Below, piece after piece: positions 5,276 through 61,170 of a DNA stretch of 64,000 bases. The stretch is taken from NCBI GenBank assembly GCA_964538435.1, contig CAZIDX010000001.1, positions 139,304 through 203,303 on the forward strand, in the 5' to 3' direction. Positions within the stretch are counted from its first letter, which is position 1; every line of letters begins with the position of its first letter. Below the pieces are notes generated by a model that was not told the DNA's origin, searched no databases, and worked only from the letters and a program-made list of their open reading frames with translations. The stretch is from an uncultured Gammaproteobacteria bacterium. GTDB taxonomy: Bacteria; Patescibacteriota; Patescibacteriia; UBA9934; GWF2-40-263. Position numbers and translations under genes: made by a program.

Positions 5276-5357
5276 GGTAATGTGAGAATTTCACGAGGTG
5301 GTGGTCATCTATACTTCGAGATGGCCCGGCTCCGCCGAGTGAGATACTCGCATTACC
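5276..5357 (+). repeat. Hairpin-embedded conserved element, copy 1 (core 5296..5336)
   Basis: Core aggtggtggtcATctatacttcgagaTggcccggctccgcc sits inside the locus-specific inverted repeat ggtaatg...cattacc. The stem gtcAtct/agaTggc carries a compensatory change relative to copies 2-4. Confidence 0.7.
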
Positions 5358-5380
5358 TGCTAACTGGCGTCAATCTCAGC

Positions 5381-6022
5381 CTAGGCTTTTGCTTGCTCTG
5401 CCTCCTCAATCATATCTTTCACCTTCATAAGCGTGATAATGGTTCCACGCTCCTGCTCTGCAAGTTTGTTCTGAATGAACTTGATGGTTTCCTTCATCCG
5501 AGGGATGTACACATACTCTAGCGCATTCACACGCCGCCGAGTCTTCTCAATCTCCTCTGCAAGAAGCTTTGCGCTGTGCTCAACCTCTGCGAGCCTCACC
5601 ATGCTCTCAAGTGACTCTGAGAAATTCTGCAACGCAACATCAAGCTCTGAACTTGTAAAGCTGAATCCATACGAAAGAAAGTCACCTTCCTGTTTGTACT
5701 CAAACTGAGGCACCTCTACACTCATCACGTTCTTCACCTCTGCACTGAGGTATGTCTTCATGCTCGGCAAGAGGAACGCGCTCTTTAGCACAGATGGAGG
5801 TGTCTTAGCAGATGCAAACAAGAATGCACGAAACCCCACAGCAAGCTGATCTTCAACGGTTTCCCTGAGGGTCTTTGCTTCACGAATAATCTCCATGAAC
5901 TGTTTCATGAGACCATCACGCTTGTCCTTAAGTAGCTTATAACCTCGCTGAGAGGTCTTCAGCTTGCGCTTAAGAAGCAGCAATTCTTGTCGTGTTGGAT
6001 TGACTCCTAAGGCATTTGCCAT
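5381..6022 (-). CDS. atpD: A/V-type ATP synthase subunit D
   Basis: 213-aa coiled-coil protein at the end of the A-ATPase operon, with the typical size, position and heptad pattern. Confidence 0.75.
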   Translation of the reverse strand: MANALGVNPTRQELLLLKRKLKTSQRGYKLLKDKRDGLMKQFMEIIREAKTLRETVEDQLAVGFRAFLFASAKTPPSVLKSAFLLPSMKTYLSAEVKNVMSVEVPQFEYKQEGDFLSYGFSFTSSELDVALQNFSESLESMVRLAEVEHSAKLLAEEIEKTRRRVNALEYVYIPRMKETIKFIQNKLAEQERGTIITLMKVKDMIEEAEQAKA

Positions 6023-6027
6023 AAGGA

Positions 6028-7434
6028 TTATTCGTTATCTGACTTGTCTTCTTTCTTAGGAAGATACTTCTCAATATGATGCTCTTTGAGCCTCTTGAGC
6101 TCACGTTTTGGCAAGATAGTGAAAAGCTTCCAAGCGATTTCAAGAGTCTCTTCAATTGACCGATCATCATCCTTTCCTTGAGTGATAAACTCCTTTTCAA
6201 ACGCTTCAGCAAACTTGATGTATGCACGTTCAGCATCACTAAGAGCTGACTCACCAAGAATCACCGCAAGCTCACGAGCCTCTTTACCTGTCGCATATCC
6301 AGCAAAGAGCTGGTTAGCAACACCTGAGTGGTCATCACGTGTCTTTCCTTCTCCAATACCCTTTGACGCAAGTCGTGAAAGAGATGGAAGTGGATCAATA
6401 CATGGATAAATACCCTTTCGGTAAAGCTCTCGAGAAACAACCACCTGCCCCTCTGTAATGTAACCCGTAAGGTCAGGGATTGGGTGAGTCTTATCGTCTT
6501 CTGGCATGGTCAAGATCGGAATCTGTGTTACTGATCCTTTTCGTCCGCGAATCTTTCCTGCTCGTTCGTAGATAGTTGAAAGGTCCGTGTAGAGATATCC
6601 AGGATAACCACGTCGTCCAGGAATCTCCTTACGAGCCGCACCAACTTCTCGAAGTGCCTCACAGTAGTTGGTAAGGTCTGTCAAAATCACGAGTACATGC
6701 TTGCCTTTTTCAAACGCAAGGTACTCTGCTGTTGTGAGCGCCATTCGTGGAAGTGTGATTCGTTCAACCACTGGATCATCAGCTAGGTTGATAAAAAGCA
6801 CTGATCGCTCAATCGCCCCTGTTTTCTTGAACTCATTGATAAAAAACTCAGACTCCTCAAACGTCACACCCATCGCACCAAAAATCACACAGAAATCCTC
6901 ATCATCACCACCAGCATCAGAAACAACCTTTGCCTGACGCGCAATCTGCGCGGCAATCTCATTATGTGGAAGTCCAGCACCTGAGAAGAGTGGAAGTTTC
7001 TGTCCACGCACAAGTGTGTTAAGCCCATCAATGGTTGAAATACCAGTCTGGTAAAAGTCCTCTGGAAGCTCACGTGAGTACGGGTTGATTGGAGCACCGT
7101 TGATATCCAAATACTTCTCTGGAATCACAGCAGGCATACCATCCTTTGGATCAGCCACTCCTGAGAACACTCGTCCAAGCATGTCTGTTGACACACCGAT
7201 CTGAAGTGTCTTCCCAAGGAATGTTGCTGTTGCATTGTCCACGTCAATCCCTGATGTTCCCTCAAACATCTGCACAACCGCGTGCTTGTCTGTGATCTCA
7301 AGAACACGACCTCGTCGCTTTTCTCCATCACCAAGCTCCACCTCTACAATTTCTTCGTACATGACATCTGTAATGCCATCCACGATCACAAGTGGTCCCT
7401 GGACCTCCTTGATTGTCTTGTATCGTTTTTCCAT
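6028..7434 (-). CDS. atpB: A/V-type ATP synthase subunit B (non-catalytic)
   Basis: 468 aa with characteristic B-subunit sequence (...[38 protein letters not shown]...) and no canonical P-loop. Confidence 0.9.
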
Positions 7435-7435
7435 A

Positions 7436-9187
7436 TTATTGCGCAGAGATTAAATTCTTAATCTGATCTGCTGCTGTCTTTGCAAGTCCTTTAAGCTTGT
7501 CCTCGTCTGTCTCTAGTTTTGCTTTTGCAATCTCATCCTTAAACGGAAGCTCCGAAAGGTCTTTTACTTTTACATCCTTCTCTACAGCCTGAGTAGCATT
7601 CTCATGGAAGGTCATAATAGCCTTTAGCATGAGGTACATCCGTGCAGGAGGTGTGTATCCATCAACATCATCAAACGCAAACTGCTGCAAGTAGTCCTCA
7701 CGAATTGACTTGGCAGTATCAAGCACAACCTGCTCCTTTGCAGAGAGCGCATCAAGACCAACAAGCTTTACAATCTCCTGCAAACTGGACTCTTCCTGAA
7801 GAATTCCCATTGCTTCCATTCGCATTTCAGGCCAATCATTTCCAAAGTTCGCTCTCGCGTACTCTTCAATGTTATCCGTGTAAAGAGAGTAACTGTTGAG
7901 CCAATGAATCGCTGGGAAGTGACGTCGGTTAGCAAGCCCAGAGTCAAGCCCCCAGAACACCTTTGTCACACGAAGCGTGTTCTGTGTAACAGGCTCTGAA
8001 AGGTCTCCACCAGGAGGACTCACCGCACCAATAACAGAAAGTGACCCCTTGCGATCATCTTCTCCAAGACAGTTCACAGCACCAGCACGCTCGTAGAACG
8101 CAGCTGTTCGTGAACCCAAGTACGCTGGGTATCCCTCCTCACCAGGCATCTCCTCTAGTCGTCCAGAGATCTCACGAAGCGCCTCAGCCCATCGTGAAGT
8201 TGAGTCAGCCATAAGAGCCACATTGTAGCCCATGTCTCGGTAATACTCTGCCAAAGTAATTCCTGTGTACACAGACGCCTCACGCGCTGCCACAGGCATG
8301 TTTGATGTGTTTGCGATCATGGATGTTCGTTCCATGAGTGGCTTTCCTGACTTCGGGTCAATAAGCTCCGGGAACTCAACCAACACGTCTGTCATCTCGT
8401 TTCCACGCTCACCACAACCAATGTAGATGATGATGTCAGCATCACAATGCTTAGCAAGCGACTGCTGCGTCACGGTCTTTCCTGCTCCAAACGGTCCAGG
8501 AATACATGCTGCTCCACCTTTAACCAGTGGGAAGAATGTGTCCAAAATGCGCTGCCCAGTCACAAGCGGAGTCTTAGGCAAAACCTTTTCCTTGTACGGT
8601 CGTGGCTTTCGAATCGGCCATTTCTGCATCATTTGAATCTCAACATCTCCAACCTTCCCGATCACTTCTTCCACAGTGTATGAACCACTCTTTACTCCGG
8701 TGATCGTTCCCTCCACTCCAGGCGGCACCATGATTTTGTGCTCAATAAGATCGGTTTCTTGAACGGTTCCGATAACATCACCAGGATGCACTGGCTCACC
8801 ATCGCTCATAAGGGCCTTAAAGTCCCATTTCTTTTCACGGTCAAGTCCAGGCGCCTCAATTCCTTTTGTAATGTAAGGAGACTGAGCGATGCGTTCGATC
8901 GACTCAAGAGGGCGCTGAACACCGTCATAAATTGATTTCAAGATTCCGGGCCCAAGCTCTACAGAGAGAGGCATTCCTGTCATAAGTACTGGGTCACCTG
9001 GTTTGAGACCAGCTGTATCCTCGTACACCTGAATGGATGCCGTGTCACCCTGGAGTTTGATGATTTCACCCACAAGCTTGTGCTCACCGATTTTAACCAC
9101 GTCGAACATTCGCGCGTTGGTCATTTCAGCGGCAACCACAAGTGGTCCAGAAACCTTGATGATAACTCCGTTGTGTTCTTTCGCCAT
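7436..9187 (-). CDS. atpA: A/V-type ATP synthase catalytic subunit A
   Basis: 583 aa with Walker A motif GPFGAGKT and A-subunit-specific non-homologous region. Confidence 0.9.
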
Positions 9188-9190
9188 AAA

Positions 9191-9523
9191 TTAATTGTTG
9201 AATAGAATATCGCTTCCAATCGCCTGCTCAACAATCTTTTTCAAGTTTGCCAAACCGTCCTTTGTTGCCCCTTGCGGAGACGGAACAGTCACAAGCGCTG
9301 GAAGTGCTTCGTTTTTAAATGCTTCATCAAGGCTTGAGCGCACACGCGTGGCCCACTCCTCGGTAATGAATACTGCTGCAAATTGGTCTGATTTGAGTGT
9401 CTTGATGATCTCATCAATTTCACTCTCTTCCTTGATTGGCAAGCAAGCCACACCAAGAGGAATAAACCCCATGATGGCTTCCTCACTTCCAATGACACCA
9501 ATTTTGTAGTTTTGCTCTGCCAT
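9191..9523 (-). CDS. atpF: A/V-type ATP synthase subunit F
   Basis: 110 aa, positioned between subunits C and A as in A-ATPase operons. Confidence 0.7.
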   Translation of the reverse strand: MAEQNYKIGVIGSEEAIMGFIPLGVACLPIKEESEIDEIIKTLKSDQFAAVFITEEWATRVRSSLDEAFKNEALPALVTVPSPQGATKDGLANLKKIVEQAIGSDILFNN

Positions 9524-9524
9524 A

Positions 9525-10523
9525 TTAGTACGTATCTACAAGATGCTTTCGAATCTCTGAAGGCTCAATCTCACCAAACTTCAATGCCATGATTGTGCTC
9601 AGATTCTTGATCGCAAATTTCTTTCCAAAGTAATACGCAACCACCACTTCAGGCCCATACCCAATAAGCTTAGCCTTCTTGAGATGATCAATGATCACAT
9701 TATTGATTCCCCGAGACAGTCTCCAGATCTCCCTATCCTTCATGTAGTCCTCAATGTGCTCATCAAGCATCGGCGGAAAGTAATTTCTAAGCTGACCTAC
9801 AAATTCTGCTTCATCCGCAGAATCAACATGAGCCATAAAAACATGTAATGAGATATTCCCATAACTGTTTAAACGTTCCTTGACCCACGCAGAACTCTTT
9901 CCAAGTCTCTTTCCGCGAAGCAATAGCTTGATATTGTTTTTGTCAGCAAAGTACTTGTACAAATCAATAATAAATTGATTGCCAATCTTCTTTGCGATTG
10001 AGTGCTCAATGTGATTGAGCTTCTGGTCAACAAGATTTTCAATTCGCTCTGCATCAACCTCTTCTCCAATCTCTTGCTTAAGCTCGTCAATGTCTCTCTT
10101 TACTTTTTCATCAATCTCAGCACCAAGATCCTCAACAATATATCGTCGAAGCTGATCAATCGGGATAAGACCAGGCGCTGTCTCAAGGTGGTCCTCATAA
10201 TTCTCACCAGAAACTTTTTCTTTAAACAGTATCTTGATGTTGTAAAAATCTCGTTCAAGGAACAAAAGTCGCATGAGCTTTGGTTCAGGAATCGTCTGCT
10301 CAAACACTTTCTTGAGTCGGCTCATCTTTCGGCTCATGGCAACGCGGTAATCCTTTGCTTCCAAATCAAGAAGCTCACCCGCATAGTCAAGACTATTAAA
10401 AGCCTTAAACGCAATATCAGGCGTTTTTGCATCGATCACACGTGTCATGTCCGCATCGCTCAAAAGATGTTTCTCTAGGGAGCGAATCTTGGAACTGACG
10501 TAGATGTAATTATCGCGTGACAT
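9525..10523 (-). CDS. atpC: A/V-type ATP synthase subunit C (V-type d)
   Basis: 332-aa helical protein in the expected position. Confidence 0.7.
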   Translation of the reverse strand: MSRDNYIYVSSKIRSLEKHLLSDADMTRVIDAKTPDIAFKAFNSLDYAGELLDLEAKDYRVAMSRKMSRLKKVFEQTIPEPKLMRLLFLERDFYNIKILFKEKVSGENYEDHLETAPGLIPIDQLRRYIVEDLGAEIDEKVKRDIDELKQEIGEEVDAERIENLVDQKLNHIEHSIAKKIGNQFIIDLYKYFADKNNIKLLLRGKRLGKSSAWVKERLNSYGNISLHVFMAHVDSADEAEFVGQLRNYFPPMLDEHIEDYMKDREIWRLSRGINNVIIDHLKKAKLIGYGPEVVVAYYFGKKFAIKNLSTIMALKFGEIEPSEIRKHLVDTY

Positions 10524-10526
10524 GGA

Positions 10527-11093
10527 TTATGCGTTAAACATGGATTGATAAACCTCAATGAGCGATTGCTCACGAACCCGTTCCATAATGGTTTCAAAAC
10601 GGAAGTCGCGATCAATCGACTTACTCTGAAAGACAAACCCACCCACTGTCTCAATCGCGTCAGTAGAAATACTTGCTTTACAACCTGCCTTTTTCGCAGC
10701 TGCCGCAAGTTCAGCATGACGCTCTTTTGATGTAAGGAGCTCCCCTTCCTCGTCCTTGATTGACGAGAGCAACGTCTCAAGCAAGGCTTCATACTCACCC
10801 TTAGGAAGCTTTGCAACTTCCTCAAGAGCATCTGCATACACACTGTCAAGCTGAGCCTGTTTTGTACCAAGAAGCTTCGCGTTTACTTTTTCACGAATCT
10901 TAAACTTAGCCTGAGCAAGCTTTGAGTCAGTGTACCGTTCAATATCTTTAAGAAGACGCTCCTTTTCTTCACCTAAACGAACTTTCCACTCTTTTTCAAG
11001 AGCGGCTAGTTCATCTGAAGAACGCTTCTCAATGACTTTGATTTCATCGGCAGCCTTGTCCTTGATGTACTGTTGAATATCGTCAAAAGCCAT
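10527..11093 (-). CDS. atpE: A/V-type ATP synthase subunit E
   Basis: 188 aa, charged coiled-coil N-terminus, operon position. Confidence 0.7.
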   Translation of the reverse strand: MAFDDIQQYIKDKAADEIKVIEKRSSDELAALEKEWKVRLGEEKERLLKDIERYTDSKLAQAKFKIREKVNAKLLGTKQAQLDSVYADALEEVAKLPKGEYEALLETLLSSIKDEEGELLTSKERHAELAAAAKKAGCKASISTDAIETVGGFVFQSKSIDRDFRFETIMERVREQSLIEVYQSMFNA

Positions 11094-11098
11094 AGCTT

Positions 11099-14198: not shown

Positions 14199-14239
14199 GA
14201 TACCACTTAAGGTCCGATCGGCACTTAAATGGTATCAAT
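14199..14239. repeat. Palindromic site, left: GATACCACTTAAG-gtCCGATCGGcac-CTTAAATGGTATCAAT
   Basis: Two 13-nt arms (gataccacttaag / cttaaatggtatc; the arms differ at one position, c vs a) around a central CCGATCGG palindrome. The stop codon of gene 14235..14768 lies inside the right arm. Confidence 0.7.
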
Positions 14240-14768
14240 GTCTTTTTGCTGTATACACACGGACCCAATCTTGATTTCCAACACCTTCAAAGAATTGTGA
14301 CAATGCATCTCCTGCATCAAACCTCGATACCCATACACTTCTCTGAATACAGAAAAAACCAGCCTCCTTAAGAAATTCACGTATATTTTTTCGTAAACCT
14401 CTTTTTGATTCTGGAATATCGAAAACCACCACACAATCTTCTTCTTCGGACAATTCTTCAGCAGCACAAATCTCGAGCTTGAGAGCCTCCAGTCTCCCTA
14501 GATCAGTTAAAGTTATTTCATACTTATCGGCAATTTTATTAATCTTAACCATCTTCTTTTTCTCAAGCCTTCTTAGCTCCCGTCTCTGCAGTTGTTTTTC
14601 TCTTGCATTTCGTATTTCAATCGCACCCTCCAAGCCGTACCTAAAAGCCAATCCTGGCTGATGAAGGTTTTCAAACAATAAATCTGTCGAATGATTGAGT
14701 TGCATCAAAATATCTGATGCTCTTGAAAGATATTGAATTCTTCTTTTTGTTTCTTTGTTAGAGGTCAT
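14235..14768 (-). CDS. Small regulator-like protein with a PaaX/Cas2-fold-like C-terminal half
   Basis: CVVVFDIPESKRGLRKNIREFLKEAGFFCIQRSVWVSRFD resembles the Cas2/PaaX-C beta-alpha-beta core. The N-terminal ~90 aa may be a wHTH. The gene is flanked exactly by the palindromic repeats. Confidence 0.35.
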   Translation of the reverse strand: MTSNKETKRRIQYLSRASDILMQLNHSTDLLFENLHQPGLAFRYGLEGAIEIRNAREKQLQRRELRRLEKKKMVKINKIADKYEITLTDLGRLEALKLEICAAEELSEEEDCVVVFDIPESKRGLRKNIREFLKEAGFFCIQRSVWVSRFDAGDALSQFFEGVGNQDWVRVYTAKRH

Positions 14769-14772
14769 ATGA

Positions 14773-14975: not shown

Positions 14976-16013
14976 CTAGTTGTCTTCGTTTTCCGACTCC
15001 GAGTAGAATCCGGTCACGAAGTTGGCCTGGAACCAATCAGGGTCTGATCGGTCACGACCCAATTCGAGCTCCTCAACGCATCGATAGAGCATCTCGCCGA
15101 AGTCAATGTCCGGCTGGCCGCTACCCGATTTCCCGTCGCGGTAGAGGTTAGCATACACCTTCCACTGTTCGAGTCGGTCTGCACCTTGCTGAGCCAGCGC
15201 AGGACTGCGGTTACGCGACCAGCGAACTGCGACCAGCAGATCCTGATACAAACGCCTCCACCGAGGTGTACGAAGCACGGCTTTTGCGCGGTCCGTGATG
15301 GCGCGTTTGCGAACCGGCGGAGCCGTCCCAGCAACGTGATCATCACCGTCACCGTGCCTGCGCGAACCAGGCTTTCTTTCCGGCTCCGGCTTCGGCTTCG
15401 GCTCAGGTTCGGGCTCCGGCTCCGGTTTCGGTTTCGGTTTCGGCTCCGGCTCCGGTTTCGGCTCGGGCTCCGGCACAGGTTCGGGCTCCGGCTCAGGTTC
15501 GGGCTCGTCAGACACCACCTTTCTGTCTCTCACCGAACTCAGATCCAGACCTTCGAAAAGATCTACCCGCTTGACCGGCTCGGCATCGTGCATCATGTCC
15601 GCGTCAGTGCCACCAAACGGATCATCTACTTCCTCGTCTGAACCATCACCGTCTCCGGCCTCTGGCTCATCCTTACTCTCTTCGTCGGGTGGTTCTGTCG
15701 GCTCAGGTTCGGGCTCCGGCTCCGGTTTCGGCTCCGGTTCCTCCTCTTCTTCACCCTCCTGCTCAGCCGCACGCAACTTCCCCCACAAATCAATACGGGG
15801 GTCATCTGCATGAGCCTTGATGTACTCGGCCGGATTGTCGTGGAAATCCATGGACTCGTTCCATGCCTCCGCAACACCCAATGCCTCAGCCATGTCCTCA
15901 CCGTCGATCCCATCCTCGTCATCGAGATAGGTGTCGACATGCTCCTCAGTAGCAATGTCGGGATCATCCCCAAACAAAGCCTGAAGGGCATCTTCGAAGC
16001 TGTATTCGGCCAT
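14976..16013 (-). CDS. Highly acidic Pro/Glu/Lys-repeat protein (G+C-rich cassette)
   Basis: Long PEPEPEPEP / [19 protein letters not shown] tracts, an Asp/Glu-rich N-terminus and a basic Arg/Trp-containing C-terminus. GGAGGG RBS before the ATG at 16013; a hairpin terminator lies downstream at ~14895-14945. Confidence 0.6.
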
Positions 16014-16178
16014 TGGGCCCTCCGTTGTGTGTGGTTTGACAGCCAAAATCGTCATCAAGGACGACTTGGGCAACCGTGCAAGATAACACAAATTGACCCT
16101 TTTGTCAACAAAATGAGACAAGATTTGCTTGTTATCTTACTAAATGTTGTTAACTCTCAACATATATGCCAATCACGG

Positions 16179-16207
16179 TTGACAAAATCTCCATTTTCTG
16201 GTATTCT
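16179..16207 (+). promoter_or_regulatory. Near-consensus sigma70-type promoter for gene 16359..18098
   Basis: TTGACA (16179-16184), 17-nt spacer, TATTCT (16202-16207). Confidence 0.5.
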
Positions 16208-16358
16208 GCGCCTCTGGCACTAACATGCCCAAGTCGTCCTTTTTACCAAAAACAGTCTTGGCAAAAGTGTCTTTATAGACATTTCTGCCGAGACTGTTTC
16301 CCAACCCTCAATCAGCGTGTCTCTCGGAGCGCTGCACCCGACCCTAAGGAGGTCAAAC

Positions 16359-18098
16359 ATGGCAACTCAGAACCCACTCGTTCGCGACTCCAGCACCGGG
16401 CGTTTCATCGCCATCGTCGACGACATCGTCCTGCTCATGGCTCATCAGGAACCCGACTTCAATCGCAACCGCGGCAAGGCCATCAAGCGTGTTCGTGCGC
16501 GCATGATCATGGACCCCAAGAACGACAAGCTGCCGATCCGCGACGAGGTCGACTTCCGTCCGGTCCCGGGCGCGAACGCCTCCGGCTTCACCATCTCCTT
16601 CAACGAGAAGGGCATCCCCTTCGTAGACCCCTGCAAGACCATGGGTCTGCGCGCCGAGGCCATGCTGCCCGGCAAGGACGGCAACCTCGTGGAGACCTCG
16701 GTCCGCCCCGCCTTCGTGTGCGACGGCCTGTCCGGGTTCATCCCGTACGTGCAGCGCATCAAGGCCAAGGATGCCCAGGGTGAGCCCGGCACCGACGGCT
16801 ACAAGCCGGCCGTGCACACCTGGACCTCCACCGGCAAGATGCCCTGCATCTTCTTCCAGCCCCCGATCAAGAAGGGCAAGAAGGCCCCGCCGCCCGTGGC
16901 CGTTCCCCTGGGCCTGGCGCGTCCGTTCCTACTGGATGCCTGGAAGACCCTGGTCGAGCACCCGGATCGCCAGCACGCCACCCGCAAGCTCTTCGTGATC
17001 GAGCCGATCGCGAACAACCTGCGTGGCAACAAGCGCCACCTGGTCTTCACCCCGCGCGGCAACCCCTACACCCCGGTGTGGTACAACAAGAGCGCGGACA
17101 AGCTCCGCGATGCGCTCAAGCGCAAGCTCAACGGCGAAGCCAACGTGGTCATCCCCAGCCCGGATGGTCAGGTCCTGACCCACCTCTTCGGTAAGGTCGT
17201 GACCCCGATCACGCACAAGACCGAGACCCCGGTCGAGTACGACCTGCCCGGTGGCAAGACCGGCTGCGTCCCCTGCGTGTTCCGCATCCAGGAGCAGAGC
17301 GGTGTGGTCAAGGCCATCTACAAGGGTGAGAAGCGCCACATGGGCAACCTGGTCGCACAGGACCTGAGCTTGGACGACCTCGAGTTCAACGCGCTCACGG
17401 CCCTGGGCCTGACCATGGAGACGGCCATGACCGGCCGTGCTCTGCGCAAGCTCAAGAACAAGCTCCTGCGCGGCCCCCAGGACCAGACCAACCCCCTGTA
17501 CATGCAGGCGGTCGAGTCCTCGGGTCTCGAGCCCGGCCACCACAAGGCACAGGCCAGTGGCCCCATGCGCTTCATCGCTGACTCCGCGGTCGAGCAGGTC
17601 GAGACTCAGCTCAACGAGGAGATCAACCTGATCGCCGGCAAGCTGATCATGCCCGGTCACCGCGACAAGCCCGAACTGGTGACGCTCCTCGGCGAACTGG
17701 ACGGCACCAAGCTTCGCGAGGCCGCGTTCCAGCGCGAGGGTGCCTGCATCCTGGCCACCTGGGTCGCCAAGACCCAGAACTGGGACGAGTTCAGCTGGGG
17801 CTCCGAGCTGCACCGCCGCGTGCGCTACAAGGTCCTCATGAGCCTGGCCAAGGCCGCCGACCTCAAGATGGCCCCCAAGCCCAAGCCCAAGCCCGCCCCG
17901 GAGCCCACCAACGGTTCCGGCTCCGCGGATCAGGGCTCCGAGGGTGGCTCCAACACGCCCAAGGACGGTGGCAATCAGAAGGCCGCCAGCGACTCCGAGG
18001 CCCCGGCCGAGGAGACCCCTCGCGAGCGCAAGAACCGTCTCGCCCGCGAGCGCCGCGCCAAGGCCAAGGCCAAGAAGCTGGCCGAAGAGAGTGCTTAG
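16359..18098 (+). CDS. Hypothetical 580-aa protein with a Lys/Ala/Glu-rich disordered C-terminal tail (G+C-rich cassette)
   Basis: AGGAGG RBS 6 nt before the ATG at 16359. No recognisable catalytic motif. The C-terminus ...KPKPKPAPEP...RERKNRLARERRAKAKAKKLAEESA suggests nucleic-acid or polyanion binding. Confidence 0.55.
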   Translation: MATQNPLVRDSSTGRFIAIVDDIVLLMAHQEPDFNRNRGKAIKRVRARMIMDPKNDKLPIRDEVDFRPVPGANASGFTISFNEKGIPFVDPCKTMGLRAEAMLPGKDGNLVETSVRPAFVCDGLSGFIPYVQRIKAKDAQGEPGTDGYKPAVHTWTSTGKMPCIFFQPPIKKGKKAPPPVAVPLGLARPFLLDAWKTLVEHPDRQHATRKLFVIEPIANNLRGNKRHLVFTPRGNPYTPVWYNKSADKLRDALKRKLNGEANVVIPSPDGQVLTHLFGKVVTPITHKTETPVEYDLPGGKTGCVPCVFRIQEQSGVVKAIYKGEKRHMGNLVAQDLSLDDLEFNALTALGLTMETAMTGRALRKLKNKLLRGPQDQTNPLYMQAVESSGLEPGHHKAQASGPMRFIADSAVEQVETQLNEEINLIAGKLIMPGHRDKPELVTLLGELDGTKLREAAFQREGACILATWVAKTQNWDEFSWGSELHRRVRYKVLMSLAKAADLKMAPKPKPKPAPEPTNGSGSADQGSEGGSNTPKDGGNQKAASDSEAPAEETPRERKNRLARERRAKAKAKKLAEESA

Positions 18099-18356
18099 CC
18101 CAGCGCCTAGCGCGCTACACCACCGACACCAAATCGGTGACGAAAGGCCCGGTGAGGACCTGGAAGACGAACGTGTCTCCCAGGCCCTCCCGGCGCCTTT
18201 TCTATTTCCCAACCAAAACCACACACACAACCGCAACCACAAGCACAAACACAAGCACAACCCCCATGGAGATGGCGACCTAAGGGGCTCAACGCCCCGC
18301 CAGGTCGCAGCCCCCACTACCCCACCTATAGGCCCAGGACGCCAAACGGCCGTTCG

Positions 18357-18447
18357 AGGTGTTGTGAGAAAAATCACGAGGTGGTGGTCGTCTATCCTGC
18401 GAGACGGCCCGGCTCCGCCTCGTTATTTTTCTCACAACACCTCGTGG
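18357..18447 (+). repeat. Hairpin-embedded conserved element, copy 2 (core 18379..18419)
   Basis: The core is flanked by the perfect inverted repeat gtgttgtgagaaaaat / atttttctcacaacac and by cacgagg / cctcgtg. Confidence 0.75.
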
Positions 18448-18555
18448 CCACCCCAAGCCCCCATAGAAAGATCCGAGCAAGGTTCAAGCAAAGGCGCAAC
18501 CAATTAAAAGGAAAGGAAACAAAAAGAAAAAACCGGCACAGAGCCGGTCTTATTG

Positions 18556-22816: not shown

Positions 22817-22860
22817 ATTTCTATTTTTAAACGTTTGGACACCAGATCGTCCGAGCTGCT

Positions 22861-22934
22861 GTGCAAGCATTACACAAGGTGGTGGTCGTCTATCCTGCGA
22901 GACGGCCCGGCTCCGCCGTGTGGAATGATTGCAC
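22861..22934 (+). repeat. Hairpin-embedded conserved element, copy 3 (core 22877..22917)
   Basis: Core identical to copy 2. Flanked by the imperfect inverted repeat gtgcaagcatt...aatgattgcac. Confidence 0.7.
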
Positions 22935-22973
22935 AGTAGCTCGGACTCAACAAAGAACCCAAACAAGATACAA

Positions 22974-52909: not shown

Positions 52910-53191
52910 ATGGATGAAAAACTTGTTGAACGCCTAGAACAGGCTGTACGCGACGCCTCACTCCTTGTTTCTCGCATGGAGCGCATTACTGAATCATTCT
53001 CCGGCACAATCAGAGAGTTCTCTGCTTCTGCCACCAAAATGTACGAAGCAGCAAGAGCCAACGACGCCGCATCTGTACGAAACCTTGAAGCTGCACAAAT
53101 CAACGACGCTGCCTCTATGCGTTTCCAAGAAGCTGCGCGCACCATGTCAGCAGCCGCATCACGCATCCAGGCCGCATCCTCTCGCCGCTAG
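52910..53191 (+). CDS. Small Ala-rich protein built from ~14-aa repeats (xxxEAARxNDAAS)
   Basis: GGAGG RBS. KMYEAARANDAAS / VRNLEAAQINDAAS / MRFQEAARTMSAAAS / RIQAASSRR. Confidence 0.45.
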   Translation: MDEKLVERLEQAVRDASLLVSRMERITESFSGTIREFSASATKMYEAARANDAASVRNLEAAQINDAASMRFQEAARTMSAAASRIQAASSRR

Positions 53192-53217
53192 CAACGGATC
53201 TCCGTTGCTTTTCTTTT

Positions 53218-53279
53218 CCCTCACAAAAAACAAGGTGGTGGTCGTCTATTCTGCGAGACGGCCCGGCTCCGCCGAGGGA
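53218..53279 (+). repeat. Hairpin-embedded conserved element, copy 4 (core 53233..53273)
   Basis: The core differs from copies 2 and 3 at one position (tattctg vs tatcctg). Flanked by ccctc...gaggg. Confidence 0.7.
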
Positions 53280-53368
53280 ACTTATTTCAGTACTACAGTG
53301 AGCGTATTGACAAAACCCTCATTTTGTGGCACTATTCCTCACCACTGTTTCCCGAAAGGAGCAGAAAC

Positions 53369-54915: not shown

Positions 54916-54936
54916 TATTGACAAAATTTCAACCCT

Positions 54937-55280: not shown

Positions 55281-55769
55281 TCAATCAACCAACTCCACCC
55301 CTGCTTCCTCTGCCATCCCTTCAAGATTATGTTTCAACCGCTCTTCTCCCTGCTCAGTATACGTTGATCTTTGCACAATTATCCCCCTCTCCTTCGCAAA
55401 CCGCATCGTCTCCTCAACAAGCCTCTTCGAATATCCCTTTTCTTGAAACTTTGGATCAATCGACATAAACGAAATCCAATATGTGTTCTCACGATACGGA
55501 CTCTCTTCAAGCTCAGCCAGCCCCACAACAACTTCCCCCTCTCTAACCAAAGGATAGAACAGCTTTTCCCTACGTCTTAACACCTTTCCAATATCAAAAT
55601 ACCTAAACACACCATTGTCCCGTCCGCTACCAAACCTTTCATCCTGAGGCATTGGCTCACCTTGATAAACCATATCAATAATCTCAGATCCAGATACTGT
55701 CTCAGCACTAACCACTAATTTATCCTTTGATTCCACTGACAGTCGACTCCTTTCACCTTCGCCAGCCAT
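55281..55769 (-). CDS. GNAT-family N-acetyltransferase
   Basis: Motif A FQEKGYSKRLVEETMRFAKERG. Confidence 0.5.
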   Translation of the reverse strand: MAGEGERSRLSVESKDKLVVSAETVSGSEIIDMVYQGEPMPQDERFGSGRDNGVFRYFDIGKVLRRREKLFYPLVREGEVVVGLAELEESPYRENTYWISFMSIDPKFQEKGYSKRLVEETMRFAKERGIIVQRSTYTEQGEERLKHNLEGMAEEAGVELVD

Positions 55770-55773
55770 AGTT

Positions 55774-56178
55774 CTATGCTCTCAATTCTGCCACAGCTTC
55801 ATGTACGAGCGTTTTTAATCTGGCAAGAATCTCAACAATCTCTCCTGGACCATCAATATGTGGATTTGTTTCTGAAACAACATCACTTGACATGCGATCA
55901 AGATGGGGTAGATGTCCTTCTAATTTGTTGACCCAATCCTCTCTCTCACTCTCATCAGCTTCAAACGCAGAGTTGATTTGCTGAAAAATTGCATCTGCCG
56001 TTTCATCTGCCCATCCCTCATCCTTATCTTTGTTTAAAAGCTCAATCACCTCAGCTAGCCGTTCTCGTAAGGTAGTAGGAACATTCTCATTTTTTCCAAA
56101 ATAACTATCAAGTGGCCATGGTTCTCGCACCCACTCATCAGCAGGGGGCTGATATCCCTCCGTTCCTAATTCAGACAT
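55774..56178 (-). CDS. Hypothetical acidic protein
   Basis: Complete ORF, 134 aa. Confidence 0.35.
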   Translation of the reverse strand: MSELGTEGYQPPADEWVREPWPLDSYFGKNENVPTTLRERLAEVIELLNKDKDEGWADETADAIFQQINSAFEADESEREDWVNKLEGHLPHLDRMSSDVVSETNPHIDGPGEIVEILARLKTLVHEAVAELRA

Positions 56179-56235
56179 ATTTGTATGTATTACAAGATTT
56201 AGATGTAAGTATTCTACTCCTCCAAAGTCAATCTC

Positions 56236-57297
56236 TCAACCCTCCTTTTTTACCACCCGGACACCTCCACGGATCCTAAGCTCAAGACTCAGAGGAGGCT
56301 CTATCCCTGTTTTCGCAAGAACATCTTTCATGCGCTCATCAAAAAGACGCGTCAACTCCTTCTCTCGCTCTTCCTGTTCCTGATACGCTTCATTGGAATC
56401 TGCGACAAAATCCCTACTACGATAATGCAGTTGCGGCCAATCATCCCATCGCTGAGCCACATCCGGTCCAACACCGCGCCCAAGCATATCCGTCACCTGA
56501 TCTGGAGACTCAAACACGATTGCAAAGTACAAAGCCAAAATCTCTTGACCGTTCTGATAATCAAAAAGGTTTGTTACGTATTTTTTCATGAACGACTCAC
56601 CCCTTTCAGCTCTTGCTCTTACATTATTTACATCATTCATTACTATCTGAGATCGCCCTTCAATACCATTCTTTATCAACTCTTTCTGACTTTTCCCACC
56701 AGCTATAAAATGAGGAATTTCTCCAAACGAACCATACACAAACTCTTCCGCATGAATAAGCGTGTCCATAACACCATAACTGGAAACCTCGCCAGTTTGA
56801 TCAGGGCTCAAAAATTCATCAAAATCATTTTTGTCTGCGCGTACTGGAGTTAACCCTCGAACAAACTTTTGAAACAACTTAAGCTTCTTTCGTTTTCTCA
56901 AAAACTCCCCTGGCCTCAAAAGAGTGACTCCATCAAAATACAGTTGTCTCATTTCATCTACTTGCAAAGCAGACTTTTCACGTAGCACCTCATGATTTCC
57001 ATTTTCAAAAATCTCTTCCACCAACCTTGCAAGCTCGTTGTCTTCTTTTATCAAATCAAGCTCCCTTTCTAATGCGGGCACATCCCCATCATCAGAAAGT
57101 CGATCCTTGATATCTGCCATCTTCCTCTCAGACTCAGCTTTATCAATTGCAAAAGCCTCAGACACAAGCACGCGCTTATCTGGTCGTTTCGCAGCAGAAC
57201 GCTCTATCTCACGCTCTTGCACCACGTCTCGACCATTCTCGACATGGGGAGTTTTTCGAAAAATATCAAACATATAGCTTACAAGACAGTATACCAA
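56236..57297 (-). CDS. Hypothetical protein (353 aa)
   Basis: Complete ORF with no confident motifs. Confidence 0.4.
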   Translation of the reverse strand: MVYCLVSYMFDIFRKTPHVENGRDVVQEREIERSAAKRPDKRVLVSEAFAIDKAESERKMADIKDRLSDDGDVPALERELDLIKEDNELARLVEEIFENGNHEVLREKSALQVDEMRQLYFDGVTLLRPGEFLRKRKKLKLFQKFVRGLTPVRADKNDFDEFLSPDQTGEVSSYGVMDTLIHAEEFVYGSFGEIPHFIAGGKSQKELIKNGIEGRSQIVMNDVNNVRARAERGESFMKKYVTNLFDYQNGQEILALYFAIVFESPDQVTDMLGRGVGPDVAQRWDDWPQLHYRSRDFVADSNEAYQEQEEREKELTRLFDERMKDVLAKTGIEPPLSLELRIRGGVRVVKKEG

Positions 57298-57334
57298 TTT
57301 TCATGCTATTTTAAGATCAATAACCAAAGCACCT

Positions 57335-57988
57335 ATGAAACACTCGAGTAAAAAGCTTCTCATTGCCCTGCTTGGCATAAACACCCTCTTCATTGCCGCA
57401 CATCTGCTCATTCACTCTCTAGAGCTTTTTACTGAAAAGGACGTCACAACACTCGTCGCGCTCTTAAGCATGGATCTCGAATACACCCTCCCAACGTTCT
57501 TTGCAACCCTGCTCCTTGCAAGCATCTCAGGAGCATTCCTGACAATCGCTCTCAAAAAACAAACTCACAAGCTGGCCTGGTTTTCACTTTCTGCAATCTT
57601 TGCCTACCTAAGCCTAGATGAGCTCCTCGCCATCCACGAACGCCTCATCGAACCCATGCAAGCAATGCTGAGCATCTCAAGCGGGCCATTCTTTTTCGCC
57701 TGGATCATCCCGGTCTCCATTCTGATCATTCTCTTCACAGCTATCTACTGGAGATTCTTTTTCTCCCTACCAAAATCAACACGCAATCTTCTATTCCTCG
57801 CAGCCACCCTATTTGTTCTGGGTGCAATCGGAGTCGAGATGATCTCCGGTGCATACTGGCAAGCCAATAACTTTGATAACAATATTACCTATCGCATTCT
57901 AAATGCTCTTGAGGAAGGCTTGGAAAACACAGGATCAATTATTGCTCTTATCACACTTCTCAAATTTAGAACGAAAAACTCGCAGTAA
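57335..57988 (+). CDS. Integral membrane protein (about 6 TM helices)
   Basis: Hydrophobicity pattern. Confidence 0.45.
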   Translation: MKHSSKKLLIALLGINTLFIAAHLLIHSLELFTEKDVTTLVALLSMDLEYTLPTFFATLLLASISGAFLTIALKKQTHKLAWFSLSAIFAYLSLDELLAIHERLIEPMQAMLSISSGPFFFAWIIPVSILIILFTAIYWRFFFSLPKSTRNLLFLAATLFVLGAIGVEMISGAYWQANNFDNNITYRILNALEEGLENTGSIIALITLLKFRTKNSQ

Positions 57989-58019
57989 GCACTACGAGTT
58001 TTTCAAAAATACCATTCAA

Positions 58020-58328
58020 TTATTTACTCGGCCTACACATCATTTTAAAAACCACAATAAGCAAAAGAACTCCGCCTACTGTAATTCCTGTAATCGCACC
58101 TGCGCTCAAATCATAACTATTCGGTAAATAAAACATCACAAACGGAACAAACAGTAAAATAAGCACCACAAGCACCCAAGAAGCCTTTGTTATCCTCTTT
58201 TTGCAGGGAAAACACAGAATTTTTTCTTCGTACACAGCCTCTGAACCATACATTTGCGCTCTTCTAATAATCGCTTGGTCTGCAGGAACCTCTTCTTTGC
58301 AATTAGAGCATGTAACTTTTGCAGACAT
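58020..58328 (-). CDS. Zinc-ribbon protein with two C-terminal TM helices
   Basis: CSNC...CFPC ribbon followed by hydrophobic segments. Confidence 0.4.
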   Translation of the reverse strand: MSAKVTCSNCKEEVPADQAIIRRAQMYGSEAVYEEKILCFPCKKRITKASWVLVVLILLFVPFVMFYLPNSYDLSAGAITGITVGGVLLLIVVFKMMCRPSK

Positions 58329-58329
58329 A

Positions 58330-59100
58330 TTATTTCATTTTTAATTTCTTAGCACGAAGCACGAAAATCCCTGCTGCTATCACAAGCAAGACGAGAATGA
58401 TTATTAGAATCATTTTCATATTGTTCTCGAAAACAAAACCCGCTGAAGTTACCCCACTATGAAACGAGTACGTAAACATCTCAACGACATCATTGCAACT
58501 AGTCTCTTCGTCCCCAACGCCCATTTGCACATTCATGACATTATCCTCAACCTCACCTGAGTCAATATCCGCAATCTGTTCGCGTGGAACTGAAAGAACA
58601 AAAACGTTTCCTTCCACAGCATAATCATCAGACTCAAAACCATACAAAGCCTCTGGTGGCCAACTTTCATCGCTTGCCAAGTAAAGAATGCTCTCATTCA
58701 CGATTATCTCACAATCGTTTTGAGTGAACACCGCTCTATAATCGACCACCTCGTCCTGATCAACATCAATCCCAGCCCAAAATGAAACATCGTGGCACTC
58801 ACCGACCGATTCCTTATTTTCAAAAATCCAATCAAAATACATGTTCCCTTCATCATGAGTAACCGCTACCCCCTGCAAATCATACAAAAAGCCCTCATTC
58901 TCAATGTCACACCGTACCCCTGCAACATCGCTTGAACTAGATACATCTCCAGATTGATCAAGGACACTTTTCACACCCAAAGGATCAGCTGCATATGCCA
59001 CCGCAGCAAATGCAAACACAACCAAAATGCAAATCAAGACACCTAAACGTTCAAAAGTTTGGCTATTCATATACAAAAAGTATATCACAAGAACAAACAA
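58330..59100 (-). CDS. Secreted/membrane-anchored protein of unknown function
   Basis: N-terminal signal peptide and a C-terminal TM anchor. Confidence 0.4.
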   Translation of the reverse strand: MFVLVIYFLYMNSQTFERLGVLICILVVFAFAAVAYAADPLGVKSVLDQSGDVSSSSDVAGVRCDIENEGFLYDLQGVAVTHDEGNMYFDWIFENKESVGECHDVSFWAGIDVDQDEVVDYRAVFTQNDCEIIVNESILYLASDESWPPEALYGFESDDYAVEGNVFVLSVPREQIADIDSGEVEDNVMNVQMGVGDEETSCNDVVEMFTYSFHSGVTSAGFVFENNMKMILIIILVLLVIAAGIFVLRAKKLKMK

Positions 59101-59154
59101 ATTTCTCTAAAATATTTGCTATAATGTGCCCATAAACCATATTTATAACAGTCT

Positions 59155-59565
59155 ATGAAAAAACACATACAAAAACTCGTTTTTCAAGACAAAGACGGAA
59201 ACAAAACCAAAGACATGGAAGGATCTGAAACGTTAAACATTGGAGATACTTTCTCAGCAACATTAACAGAGCTTGATAATCAAGTTATCCATTACGAGGT
59301 TGTCGATAAACAAGAAAAAGAAAAAAACGAGGTCATTACAACAACATACTACCTCAAGCCAATCAAGGACGACGAATCAACGGATATCAAAAACCACCCG
59401 GTAAAAATGTGGCTCCTAATTGCTGTTGTTCTCTTTGCTGTTGCTGGAAGCATTTTAAGTTTTGAAAGCTGGCAAAAAATCGGCGGTATTTTTGTCTATC
59501 TTGCTCTATTTGCTGTGATTATGGCAATCGTTTCATTTTTCAAAAAGAAAGGTAAGGACAAATAA
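59155..59565 (+). CDS. Small membrane protein
   Basis: C-terminal pair of TM helices. Confidence 0.4.
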   Translation: MKKHIQKLVFQDKDGNKTKDMEGSETLNIGDTFSATLTELDNQVIHYEVVDKQEKEKNEVITTTYYLKPIKDDESTDIKNHPVKMWLLIAVVLFAVAGSILSFESWQKIGGIFVYLALFAVIMAIVSFFKKKGKDK

Positions 59566-59569
59566 CTCT

Positions 59570-59953
59570 ATGCGATATTTCTCACTTCTCCTGCTGCTTT
59601 TCTGTCTTGGAGGTGGATTACTGCTATCAACCAAGACCACTCATGCAGTTCCCCGAATGACAGAATTCGGAATCAACGAGACCAATCTCACTTGTGCGGA
59701 ATTTTTCATGGGCGATGAATACAGCACCTGCCACCTGCCAGATGGATGGACCGTAACTGTTGATCGTGAGTGCCCTGAAGGTTATGTGCTCATCGAAGCT
59801 GATTCGGTTTGTGATGAAACACCTGTGGTAAATCTGGAAGAAGACTTACAATCAAATACAGATGAAATCAATATCAGCTCAATCCTAAAAATCTCAATAA
59901 TCGGAATCCTGTTAATAATCGGTGCGGTGTTTCTAGTTAAAAGAAAGCAATGA
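59570..59953 (+). CDS. Secreted protein with a C-terminal TM anchor
   Basis: Signal peptide, six Cys residues, and a C-terminal hydrophobic helix followed by KRKQ. Confidence 0.4.
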   Translation: MRYFSLLLLLFCLGGGLLLSTKTTHAVPRMTEFGINETNLTCAEFFMGDEYSTCHLPDGWTVTVDRECPEGYVLIEADSVCDETPVVNLEEDLQSNTDEINISSILKISIIGILLIIGAVFLVKRKQ

Positions 59954-61014
59954 AGCGAATAAAGGACTACTTCCAATTCCGCAAAACAAAACGGTTTTAC
60001 CAAAAACATGAGCGAATGTTTGTGCCGCTCATGCTTTTGCTTGGAACAATCGCTGATTTTGTCACCTTTAGATCAATCGAGGTCTCAACAGCCTTCACTA
60101 TACTTGGTTGCTACACTATTGTGGCCAGCCTGCTTCTTCTTTACATGCATCACTATGATGCATCAAAACCTCTCATTGCAACTGCAAACTTCCGATCCCG
60201 CCTGCGCCTTATCGCGCCACTCATCGTGCAATTCATCTTTGGAGCACTGCTCTCTGCAAGCCTAGTCTTCTACTGGTTCTCAGGAAGCTTCACACACTCA
60301 TGGCTGCTCATCATTATTCTGCTCGCACTCATGGTTTCAAACGAAGTGCTGCGAGAACACTACCTCAAACCCATCGTTCAGCTCAGCGTTTTCTATTTCA
60401 CACTTATCGCCACGCTAGCTGTCGCCCTACCTTTTGTTTTTAACTCAATATCCTCACTAATCTTTGTTCTCGCAGGTGCCTCAAGCCTAATCATCATCTT
60501 TGTTTTCCTGAAAGTTTTATATCGACTCCGACCTGATCTCAAACAACTCAAACCAAACATCTTCATTCCAATCATTTCAATCTTCATTCTTTTCAATGGC
60601 GCGTACTTTCTCAACCTAATTCCCCCGACCCCACTCTCTCTGACCGAAATCGGAGTTTACAACTCAGTTGAGCGCGTTGGAAACGATTATATTCTCACTC
60701 GCGAAGATGAAACATTCACCAGCTGGCTTCTTCCAGGCACAACCATCGCAGCAAACCCAGGCGGGCGTGTGTATGTGTTCGCATCTATCTACGCACCAGT
60801 TGATCTCAACACCTCAATCACCCACGAGTGGCAATACCTCTCAAACTCTGGTTGGAAAACCATCAACGAACTGAACTACTCAATCGTGGGAGGCCGCAAA
60901 GACGGCTACCGTGGCTACTCCTACATCACAACCTTCCAGCCTGGCAAATGGCGCGTCTACGTCAAAACCCCTCGAGGCCAAGTCATAGGAAAAACCAGCT
61001 TCAAAATCAAATAG
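59950..61014 (+). CDS. Multi-pass membrane protein with a C-terminal soluble beta-rich domain
   Basis: About 7 TM helices, then an ~110-aa hydrophilic domain. Confidence 0.45.
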   Translation: MKRIKDYFQFRKTKRFYQKHERMFVPLMLLLGTIADFVTFRSIEVSTAFTILGCYTIVASLLLLYMHHYDASKPLIATANFRSRLRLIAPLIVQFIFGALLSASLVFYWFSGSFTHSWLLIIILLALMVSNEVLREHYLKPIVQLSVFYFTLIATLAVALPFVFNSISSLIFVLAGASSLIIIFVFLKVLYRLRPDLKQLKPNIFIPIISIFILFNGAYFLNLIPPTPLSLTEIGVYNSVERVGNDYILTREDETFTSWLLPGTTIAANPGGRVYVFASIYAPVDLNTSITHEWQYLSNSGWKTINELNYSIVGGRKDGYRGYSYITTFQPGKWRVYVKTPRGQVIGKTSFKIK

Positions 61015-61070
61015 CAAAAAACACCGATTCGATTCGGTGTTTTGTAATCCATCTTCTACCCTCAAATAAG

Positions 61071-61170
61071 GCACGCAGGATGTGCAAAATAAAAAACCAA
61101 GGTGGTGGTCGCCTTGTTAGCGCTAGACCCGGTTCCGCCTTGGTTTTTTATTTTGCACATCCTGCGTGCC
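61071..61170 (+). repeat. Hairpin-embedded conserved element, copy 5 (divergent core 61100..61139)
   Basis: The core aggtggtggtcgccttgttagcgctagacccggttccgcc lies in the loop of a perfect 32-bp inverted repeat (gcacgcaggatgtgcaaaataaaaaaccaagg / ccttggttttttattttgcacatcctgcgtgc). That inverted repeat also serves as the bidirectional terminator between two convergent genes. Confidence 0.7.

Follow-up and report, generated by a model that had tools for sequence, protein, structure and literature searches.

The 64-kb stretch of bacterial DNA analyzed here in its entirety (the window) carries five dispersed copies of an intergenic hairpin whose conserved tip sits on a long, fast-evolving stem. 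Together with 17 copies retrieved from other contigs, they form a family that is best explained as non-autonomous interspersed hairpin repeats. The sequence folds in a strand-specific way and its covariation is genuine, and the family is gained and lost between genomes, with a patchy distribution confined to a sub-lineage of Candidatus Uhrbacteria. To judge from its proteins, the genome of the window belongs to this same group of the Candidate Phyla Radiation (CPR): V-type ATPase subunit D and other window proteins have their best relatives in metagenome-assembled genomes (MAGs) of Candidatus Uhrbacteria/Patescibacteria. CPR/Patescibacteria genomes are about 1 Mb in size, streamlined and poorly understood, and interspersed repeats and their enzymes are barely described there. 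The design of the element is unusual, with a conserved structured tip, fast-evolving complementary stems, modular flanks and near-perfect co-orientation with replication. It could serve as a clean natural system for the spread of single-strand-specific hairpin elements, for the concerted evolution of palindrome arms and for the donation of promoter boxes by repeats to genes such as rpmF.

A conserved tip on a covarying, strand-specific stem

The cores of the five window copies lie at 5296-5336, 18379-18419, 22877-22917, 53233-53273 and 61100-61139 (copies 1 to 5), all on the + strand and all intergenic, as the original prediction, made from the letters of the window, had stated. The conserved halves of the core, GGTGGTGGTC and CCCGGYTCCGCC, each match the window five times, at those five positions, and the joint core pattern returned no match across 100 shuffles. 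The copies are spaced 4.5-30 kb apart among housekeeping genes, a density of about one per 13 kb, and the genes next to them have no function in common.

The tip adopts the fold 5' GGUGG-U-GGUC(variable top and loop)GRCC-CGGYU-CCGCC 3', which gives two short helices and an asymmetric internal loop. Helix P2 (GGUGG/CCGCC) comprises 5 bp including one U.G pair, and the base of helix P3 (GGUC/GRCC) comprises 4 bp, with U.G found 11 times and U-A 11 times. At the top of P3 a further 3-4 pairs covary by lineage (GTCT/AGAC, ATCT/AGAT, AGA/TCT, ATG/CAT and GTC/GAC). In copy 1 a G-C pair of the inner stem is replaced by a compensated A-T pair, and both this double change and the GGTGG/CCGCC pairing with a single wobble, each noticed in the original prediction, hold up. 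Under the tip runs a stem of 25-33 bp.

When all 22 copies were aligned, 94% of the cells were standard pairs and 17 of the 26 pairs were altered on both sides. Double changes occupied 99 cells, compared with 30 in shuffled controls and 18-28 in controls with slid partners, and none of 500 shuffles reached the observed number. The folded structure proposed from the five copies is thus borne out by covariation and by the strand-specific fold set out below. Because the further copies were retrieved by a pattern demanding both conserved halves, the lack of variation in P2 and in the internal loop partly reflects ascertainment. A relaxed search returned the variant GGCGGCGGTCGTCTACCCAGACGACCCAGCCCCGCC, in which the U.G pair of P2 has become C-G and P2 is wholly Watson-Crick; this arm-less, core-like hairpin lies on the - strand of L116 (3495-3530), 60 nt upstream of a full copy, and scores 19.7 bits.

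Along the arms, 651 positions resolve into 626 Watson-Crick pairs and 25 mismatches, of which 9 are of the G.T type and 2 of the A.C type, and this near-perfect complementarity holds even among paralogs that are 70-89% identical in their unpaired parts. The arms share a consensus across copies (GG..G.CAAGAT.CTGTG.GA.ATTTC.CGA), and the stems are diverged descendants of one ancestral arm and not, as had been supposed, inverted repeats unique to each locus. Since the arms are homologous between copies and the outer flanks are common within sub-families, the whole hairpin of about 105 nt is the unit, often accompanied by 50-180 nt of additional conserved flank. The arm lengths first given (7 bp in copy 1, 16 in copy 2 and 32 in copy 5) are replaced by 25 of 29, 24 of 25 and 31 of 31 paired positions, respectively, and it is copy 4 that has the 7 bp. 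With its flanks each copy folds as a single long hairpin, with z-scores of -8 to -13 in four copies and of -1.9 in copy 4, where the weak fold reflects the mere 7 bp of outer stem left; the core as RNA folds at -17.5 kcal/mol. Copies 5, 1, 3 and 2 provide the four longest hairpins in the window, and a hairpin survey of its 64 kb found no long hairpin lacking the core.

Within each contig the copies point the same way: 5 of 5 in the window, 8 of 8 over 150 kb of FLOH01000056.1, and 2 of 2 in each of two other contigs. The GC skew of the window + strand is negative throughout (-0.09 to -0.32) and about 60% of the coding sequence lies on the - strand, which together indicate that the + strand is the lagging-strand sequence. 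The strand that reads GGTGG is the locally C-rich strand in 21 of the 22 copies. This orientation is independent of the neighboring genes, as copy 1 has - strand genes on both sides, copy 4 has + strand genes, and copies 2 and 5 are flanked by convergent ones. The GGTGG strand is also the one that folds better (in 21 of 22 cases for the full element and in 20 of 22 for the core), a result that holds with DNA parameters too, and the excess of G.T-type over A.C-type mismatches in the arms (9 versus 2) is the opposite of what a skew-generating mutation bias predicts. The skew-tied orientation, the fold asymmetry and the mismatch bias together argue that one particular strand is the folded, selected form and that it is placed by replication, not transcription. 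An apparent enrichment of upstream genes on the strand of the element was dropped, as several of the crude gene calls were spurious (for example at copy 3).

Copies beyond the window came from pattern scans of genome and metagenome contigs. A first, loose pattern scan of genome contigs returned 103 loci, nearly all of them high-GC coding noise, and one genuine copy (L010, from a Candidatus Uhrbacteria MAG); a tighter scan of metagenomes gave 16 more, 14 of which lie on six contigs of assembly FLOH01. The total is therefore 22 copies, the five of the window and 17 on metagenome or MAG contigs beside unrelated genes, and the core is conserved in at least 4-5 genomes.

Orthologous loci show these copies to be gained and lost. 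A segment of FLOH01000056.1 (285-306 kb, L149) is syntenic to window 13.5-34 kb, with about 20 genes at 65-93% amino-acid identity. The junction between the DUF3179 stop and the Band7 ATG, where copy 3 sits, measures 157 nt in the window, 4 nt in L149 and 12 nt in the outgroup (L151/L152), and the element-free sites are also without any hairpin. Because two syntenic relatives have near-abutting genes at this junction, copy 3 must be derived: some 150 nt were inserted, more than the hairpin itself, and the core is not ancestral there. At the copy 2 locus, FLOH01 keeps the termini of the sub-family to which copy 2 belongs (A-type, described below) and the first 14 nt of one arm, with the inner 215 nt swapped for a different structured module of 131 nt; the outgroup has no A-type element. 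As FLOH01 keeps the termini, an A-type element was already present here before the window genome and FLOH01 diverged, and its interior can be exchanged. The copy 1 site, in a relative at 94% amino-acid identity, holds just a terminator downstream of atpD, and aligning the intergenic DNA downstream of atpD with this relative left the insertion borders undefined, the DNA being too diverged.

The covariance model found no copy in about 180 kb of non-redundant sequence from about 8 related genomes (two of which contribute no more than contigs of 3-4 kb), nor in the 21-kb FLOH01 region syntenic to window 13.5-34 kb. Viral contigs gave 0 matches with the strict pattern and only high-GC noise with a looser one, and blastn of the 316-nt A-type element against plasmids and phages found no match. 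Presence in multiple copies and gain and loss between genomes bear out a miniature mobile or duplicative element; a miniature mobile element had been among the explanations first offered.

Individual copies, sub-families and neighboring DNA

Copy 1 is a full hairpin at 5266..5367 (+ strand) with arms at 5266-5295 and 5337-5367; its core has the inner stem GGTCATCT/AGATGGCC, the copy scores 85.4 bits with the covariance model, and the hairpin is set between the atpD stop (5381) and a terminator at about 5203-5228. Copy 3 is a full 98-nt hairpin at 22849..22946 (+ strand) with 25 of 28 arm pairs, lying in the 157-nt intergenic insert at 22817-22973 that extends from the Band7 ATG to the DUF3179 stop. 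Copy 5, at 61070..61170 (+ strand), is likewise full and its arm pairing is perfect; the top of its P3 has diverged (GGTC GCC..GCGCTA GACC). It has the stop of a RimK-like gene (61177) on one side and, on the other, a canonical bidirectional terminator, a distinct 13-bp hairpin at 61018-61043, which displaces the earlier view that the copy 5 palindrome is itself the terminator. Copies 1, 3 and 5 each lie between a - strand stop codon and its terminator, and A-type copies lie between convergent terminators. A short-read contig from the same strain (L141, Logan SRR8146440) ends at 4204, 36 nt past the RimK-like stop and at the copy 5 palindrome, and such palindromes probably fragment short-read assemblies. 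The practical interest of the family is twofold, as its palindromes probably break short-read assemblies and its copies could mark replichore orientation in fragmentary MAGs.

Three sub-families differ in what surrounds the hairpin. The A-type, made up of copy 2 and 8 FLOH01 copies, is a composite of about 260-290 nt that adds to the long hairpin a second, GC-rich one with covariation, C-rich tracts and a TTAAAGGCGAAGG tail. The additional hairpin (hairpin 1) covaries between copies, GGGGC/GCCCC against GGGCC/GGCCC and GACCT/AGGTC against GACGT/ACGTC. Copy 2 itself occupies about 260 nt at 18255..18515 (+ strand): the GC-rich hairpin 1 at about 18275-18308 is followed by a C-rich tract at 18311-18326, by the long hairpin at 18348-18449, whose arms carry an outer GGCC besides the pairs counted above, and by the tail CCCCAAGCCCCC...CCAATTAAAAGG. 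In alignment, copy 2 is 62-70% identical to the 8 FLOH01 copies. One A-type copy, L120, contains an 85-nt insertion (about 6395-6480, - strand) carrying CCCGGCGGAGCCGGG, 12 nt of the core in reverse orientation, which may be what is left of a copy nested there in inverted orientation.

A second hairpin family, CCTCCCCTT(c)T(c)AAGGGGAGG, occurs at L149 15534-15664 and L106 10730-10770; in L149 it is nested in a AAAGGCAACCCC...GGGGTTGCCTTT stem and stands in for the core hairpin within the A-type scaffold at the copy 2 ortholog. In the element-free outgroup (L151, 11450-11560), two short hairpins, each formed around the palindrome TCACCATGGTGA, occur downstream of tatD; their arms (AAATACTCAC/GTGAGTATTT) resemble the A-type arm sequence but in an inside-out arrangement.

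The B-type comprises copy 4, L116 and L121b and is recognized by its right end, CAGCAAGCG(T)ATTGACA (also given as CAGCAAGCGTATTGACA), with the TTGACA box facing outward. Copy 4 is a cut-down member at 53233..53312 (+ strand), in which the core, the right arm and tail (53274-53306) and the -35-like TTGACA (53307-53312) are present, the last closing a right end, CAGTGAGCGTATTGACA, that is common to L116 and L121b; its left arm is gone, with the upstream terminator at 53190-53209 in its place. An ATG follows the TTGACA box by 50-61 nt in all three copies and begins genes that are on the same strand and unrelated, encoding a 147-aa protein without assigned function, rpmF and a 222-aa protein. The conservation and spacing of the box in these three copies make it look like an element-borne -35 box. 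A scan for consensus promoters did not call the box at copy 4, where the -10 is weak. The C-type (L118 and L132) is marked by GAGGACAGC...GCTGCCC.

The original prediction had rightly placed copies 2 and 4 beside GC-rich DNA: copy 4 adjoins a gene of about 60% GC, and copy 2 adjoins an island at window 14976-18200 of 62-70% GC, compared with 45% for the genome. The island encodes a 593-aa protein without a Pfam match on the lagging strand and an acidic protein with a PEPEPK repeat, and a PaaX/Cas2-like protein (14235-14768) adjoins it. A tblastn search with the island proteins found no match in the first set of loci, and the island was later located in L149. Because it is kept both in FLOH01 (67% amino-acid identity) and in the outgroup L151, the island is old, its composition notwithstanding. 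In L109, an array of about 7 tRNA genes (1080-1680) takes the place of this island between tatD and the V-ATPase operon; ARAGORN found no tRNA or tmRNA in the 64-kb window. In the interval from atpD to the uvrD/addA-like gene (window 700-5380), gene content differed in every relative examined (L106, L109, L146 and L147), and L147 has a tyrosine recombinase (PF00589) within it. This interval appears to be a hot spot of gene turnover with copy 1 at its edge.

Mobile DNA, RNA module or chromosomal site

Gain and loss of multiple copies, neighbors without functional coherence, strand-specific folding and replication-linked orientation lead us to favor, tentatively, an interspersed hairpin element that acts as single-stranded DNA and is mobilized in trans, much like repetitive extragenic palindromes (REPs) or palindrome-associated transposable elements (PATEs); we judge this reading to fall just short of probable. 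The spread and turnover of copies would take place in DNA and involve a single-stranded step coupled to replication, in which a trans-acting enzyme would read the conserved tip on the GGTGG strand, by analogy with HUH/Y1 enzymes on REP hairpins or on the end hairpins of IS200/IS605. Arm complementarity would be maintained by intrastrand (fold-back) templating, giving rise to compensated changes without selection on each pair, and near-perfect arms that differ between paralogs are the expected outcome of such palindrome templating. Replication-coupled single-strand transposition is established for IS200/IS605 (PMC6006769; PMC5027513), and related CPR genomes do encode Y1/HUH transposases flanked by hairpin repeats of their own.

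One such gene, encoding a 282-aa Y1_Tnp (PF01797) protein at L142 14732-15648 (also in L143-L145), is bracketed by a perfect 25-nt inverted repeat, GGGGTCAGGTCGTGTTATGAGCATT, and solo repeats of the form TAACA.GACCTGACCCC stand at 3356 and 16839; the locus is a RAYT/REP-like system in a Patescibacteria relative, and neither the window nor the FLOH01 loci gave a homolog of its transposase. The same contig (4577-14524; also L143-L145) has seven copies of AGTTCGAACATCTTCCACTAAACGGAGCC at 0.7-4 kb spacing, each followed by a terminator-like hairpin, between short open reading frames that include a Gp49/HTH toxin-antitoxin pair and methyltransferases. This arrangement looks like a cassette array in a CPR genome.

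A bolder possibility, which we consider unlikely, is that a 40-nt apical domain, read by an enzyme in place of the ends, together with a stem regenerated by fold-back, would define a new, hairpin-centered class of mobile DNA, or that variable-stem RNA hairpins would be cut from the apical handle into locus-specific small duplex RNAs in CPR bacteria. Fold-back synthesis of the stem at each transposition or replication would explain arms that vary between copies yet stay complementary.

Several observations weigh against mobilization as single-stranded DNA. Pfam scans of about 45 window proteins turned up neither a transposase nor an integrase nor a HUH gene, a tblastn search with a Y1_Tnp of CPR origin found no match in the 64 kb of the window plus about 130 kb of element-bearing loci, and neither a target-site duplication nor conserved termini were seen among the copies. 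The better-folding strand is the leading-strand template, a polarity opposite to that of IS200/IS605 (IS608) if GC skew has its usual meaning. The A-type paralogs are just 70-89% identical to one another, so that no recent burst has occurred, and the invariance of the core is in part an artefact of the search pattern that demanded it. In addition, the isolated core as DNA is not unusually stable (z = -0.35) and is far more stable with RNA parameters, and the two conserved U.G pairs are more typical of RNA. The missing enzyme, the IS608-opposite polarity, the U.G pairs and the RNA stability are what keep our confidence in the favored reading where it is.

The RNA-like traits raise the alternative of a structured RNA module, made from the GGTGG strand or within mRNA untranslated regions, with repetition a secondary matter. 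It could be a substrate of RNase III, an element that binds a protein and serves stability or processing, an antisense RNA against the 3' ends of convergent genes or, in the B-type, an insulator with an outward promoter. Strong covariation, a wobble conserved in both core helices, a core far stabler under RNA than DNA parameters, 9 arm mismatches of the G.U type against 2 of the A.C type, the intergenic position of every copy, conservation of the core in at least 4-5 genomes and the three B-type copies that end in TTGACA 50-61 nt before the ATG of unrelated same-strand genes, including rpmF, would all suit such a module. However, orientation tracks GC skew and not the neighboring genes, which have no common function. 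Copies 1, 3 and 5 lie just 3' of - strand genes, so that a transcript would be the weaker-folding complement with C.A mismatches in both core helices, and little transcription is expected of A-type copies between convergent terminators. There is no conserved promoter upstream of the copies and no Rfam match in the window, just sub-threshold scores to miRNA-precursor models as for any generic long hairpin, and perfect 30-bp stems with hardly any wobble intermediates resemble DNA palindromes. We therefore regard an RNA module as possible but doubtful. A replication-polar chromosomal site for a host protein, following the logic of KOPS, Ter or BIME/gyrase-IHF, or a cruciform element amplified for its usefulness, would account for strict co-orientation with GC skew over 150 kb, for dispersal about every 13 kb in the window and for a tip that is conserved while the stem is free to vary. 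Absence from close relatives with the same gene order sits poorly with this, since relatives should have retained a site with a core function in the chromosome. That one strand folds better points to a single-stranded form, not to recognition of a duplex, and sub-families with differing flanks and truncated copies such as copy 4 also make such a site rather improbable.

Two further explanations follow from the setting of particular copies. An attC-like folded recombination site that captures the GC-rich genes beside copies 2 and 4, close to the cassette-acquisition site first suggested, would share with sedentary chromosomal integrons a strand-specific hairpin whose better-folding strand is on the leading-strand template (PMC5371416). 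Copies 1 and 2 do border intervals that vary between relatives, with a tyrosine recombinase in one of them, and the A-type arms have a conserved TT bulge. Yet the island by copy 2 is ancestral, present both in the FLOH01 locus and in the element-free outgroup; the copies are dispersed among housekeeping genes without arrays, the architecture is inverted (conserved center, variable base), no integrase was found in the window and the genes upstream of A-type copies are not consistently co-oriented. We consider this very unlikely. Insertion of a 41-nt core into the loops of pre-existing, locus-specific terminator hairpins, also part of the original prediction, is scarcely credible. The core is indeed much better conserved than the arms, the arm-less variant at L116 3495-3530 exists and many copies are near terminators, but the arms are homologous across copies and genomes, ordinary terminators in the window have stems of at most 14 bp with loops of 2-6 nt and are intact alongside the elements, the 64 kb contains no core-less long hairpin, and element-free sites have no hairpin. 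Mobilization in trans as single-stranded DNA remains our favored reading.

Comparison with known systems

That the original prediction could match the core to no non-coding RNA familiar to it was borne out by Rfam, which gave 0 matches at gathering thresholds over the whole window; at E-value thresholds around copy 2, just miRNA-precursor models appeared, at 32.8 bits against a gathering score of 86. No relevant literature on repeats in Uhrbacteria or Patescibacteria turned up in our search.

The resemblance to REPs and REPINs is that all are short, multi-copy, intergenic hairpin repeats that are lineage-specific and have sub-families. However, a REP is about 20-40 nt long with a conserved stem and a 5' GTAG-type tetranucleotide, whereas here the hairpin is about 105 nt with a variable stem and a conserved 40-nt tip, and no conserved tetranucleotide was found at the hairpin foot. 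BIMEs and REPINs contain inverted pairs, in contrast to the strict co-orientation with replication seen here, which REPs are not known to show. REPs are thought to be mobilized by a HUH enzyme, present in single copy and acting in trans, that recognizes a hairpin in single-stranded DNA (PMC6006769). The arrangement of a REP-associated tyrosine transposase (RAYT) gene flanked by repeats (REPtron) was looked for with Pfam on about 45 proteins and with tblastn, and neither the 64-kb window nor about 130 kb of element-bearing loci yielded a tnpA-REP gene.

IS200/IS605, the source of PATEs, combines strand-specific hairpin recognition, fork-coupled orientation and no target-site duplication (PMC6006769; PMC5027513). 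Our elements are similar in their strand-specific hairpin, their replication-tied orientation and the lack of target-site duplication. In contrast, IS200/IS605 has a sub-terminal hairpin at each end, the two being similar, and short guide sequences determine where cleavage occurs, and the present elements have one long hairpin without recognizable left and right ends, the second hairpin of the A-type being unrelated in sequence. In 5 of 14 independent copies a TCAA, noticed post hoc, follows the hairpin on its 3' side by no more than 10 nt, and no TnpA or TnpB was found in searches of the window and element loci. Moreover, the active strand of IS200/IS605 is the lagging-strand template, while the GGTGG strand is the leading-strand template in 21 of 22 copies, provided that GC skew has its usual meaning in CPR genomes.

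With attC sites the family shares extrahelical bases and a one-strand fold that would be recognized more than sequence, and in sedentary chromosomal integrons the recombining strand formed part of the leading-strand template for 25 of 30 arrays (PMC5371416). An attC site, however, has R''/L''...L'/R' boxes at its base, a variable center, tandem cassette arrays and an adjacent intI and attI, none of which occur here. The likeness to classical miniature inverted-repeat transposable elements (MITEs) extends to size, intergenic placing, folding and outward-facing boxes such as those of the B-type copies. Correia/NEMIS, RUP, BOX and ERIC are foldable, non-coding, intergenic repeats of 100-300 nt, sometimes with outward promoter boxes. 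Since a DDE transposase binds their ends, MITEs keep the inverted repeats at their termini as well as target-site duplications. Here, by contrast, conservation is lowest at the ends, the arms vary between copies in their outer portions, the flanks have no direct duplication, and comparison of the copy 3 site with its two empty sites found no target-site duplication. The TIGR units of CPR bacteria and phages, which like the present family occur in parasitic or CPR bacteria, also place variable palindromic stems around a loop with conserved motifs, but they are tandem units beside a Nop-domain tas gene, with box C/D and variable dual spacers (PMC12045711). The copies described here are solitary and dispersed, and their fixed loop has no spacers and no RUGAUGA/CUGA boxes; with neither a tandem array nor box C/D nor spacers, an identity with TIGR-Tas was rejected.

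At least one tested defining feature therefore fails for each of REP/RAYT, PATE, attC, DDE-type MITE and TIGR array. Bacterial interspersed hairpin repeats are known as a kind; what has not been described is the combination, in a CPR lineage, of a structured tip that is conserved, stems that evolve fast but in concert, flanks built of modules and a strict polarity with respect to replication.

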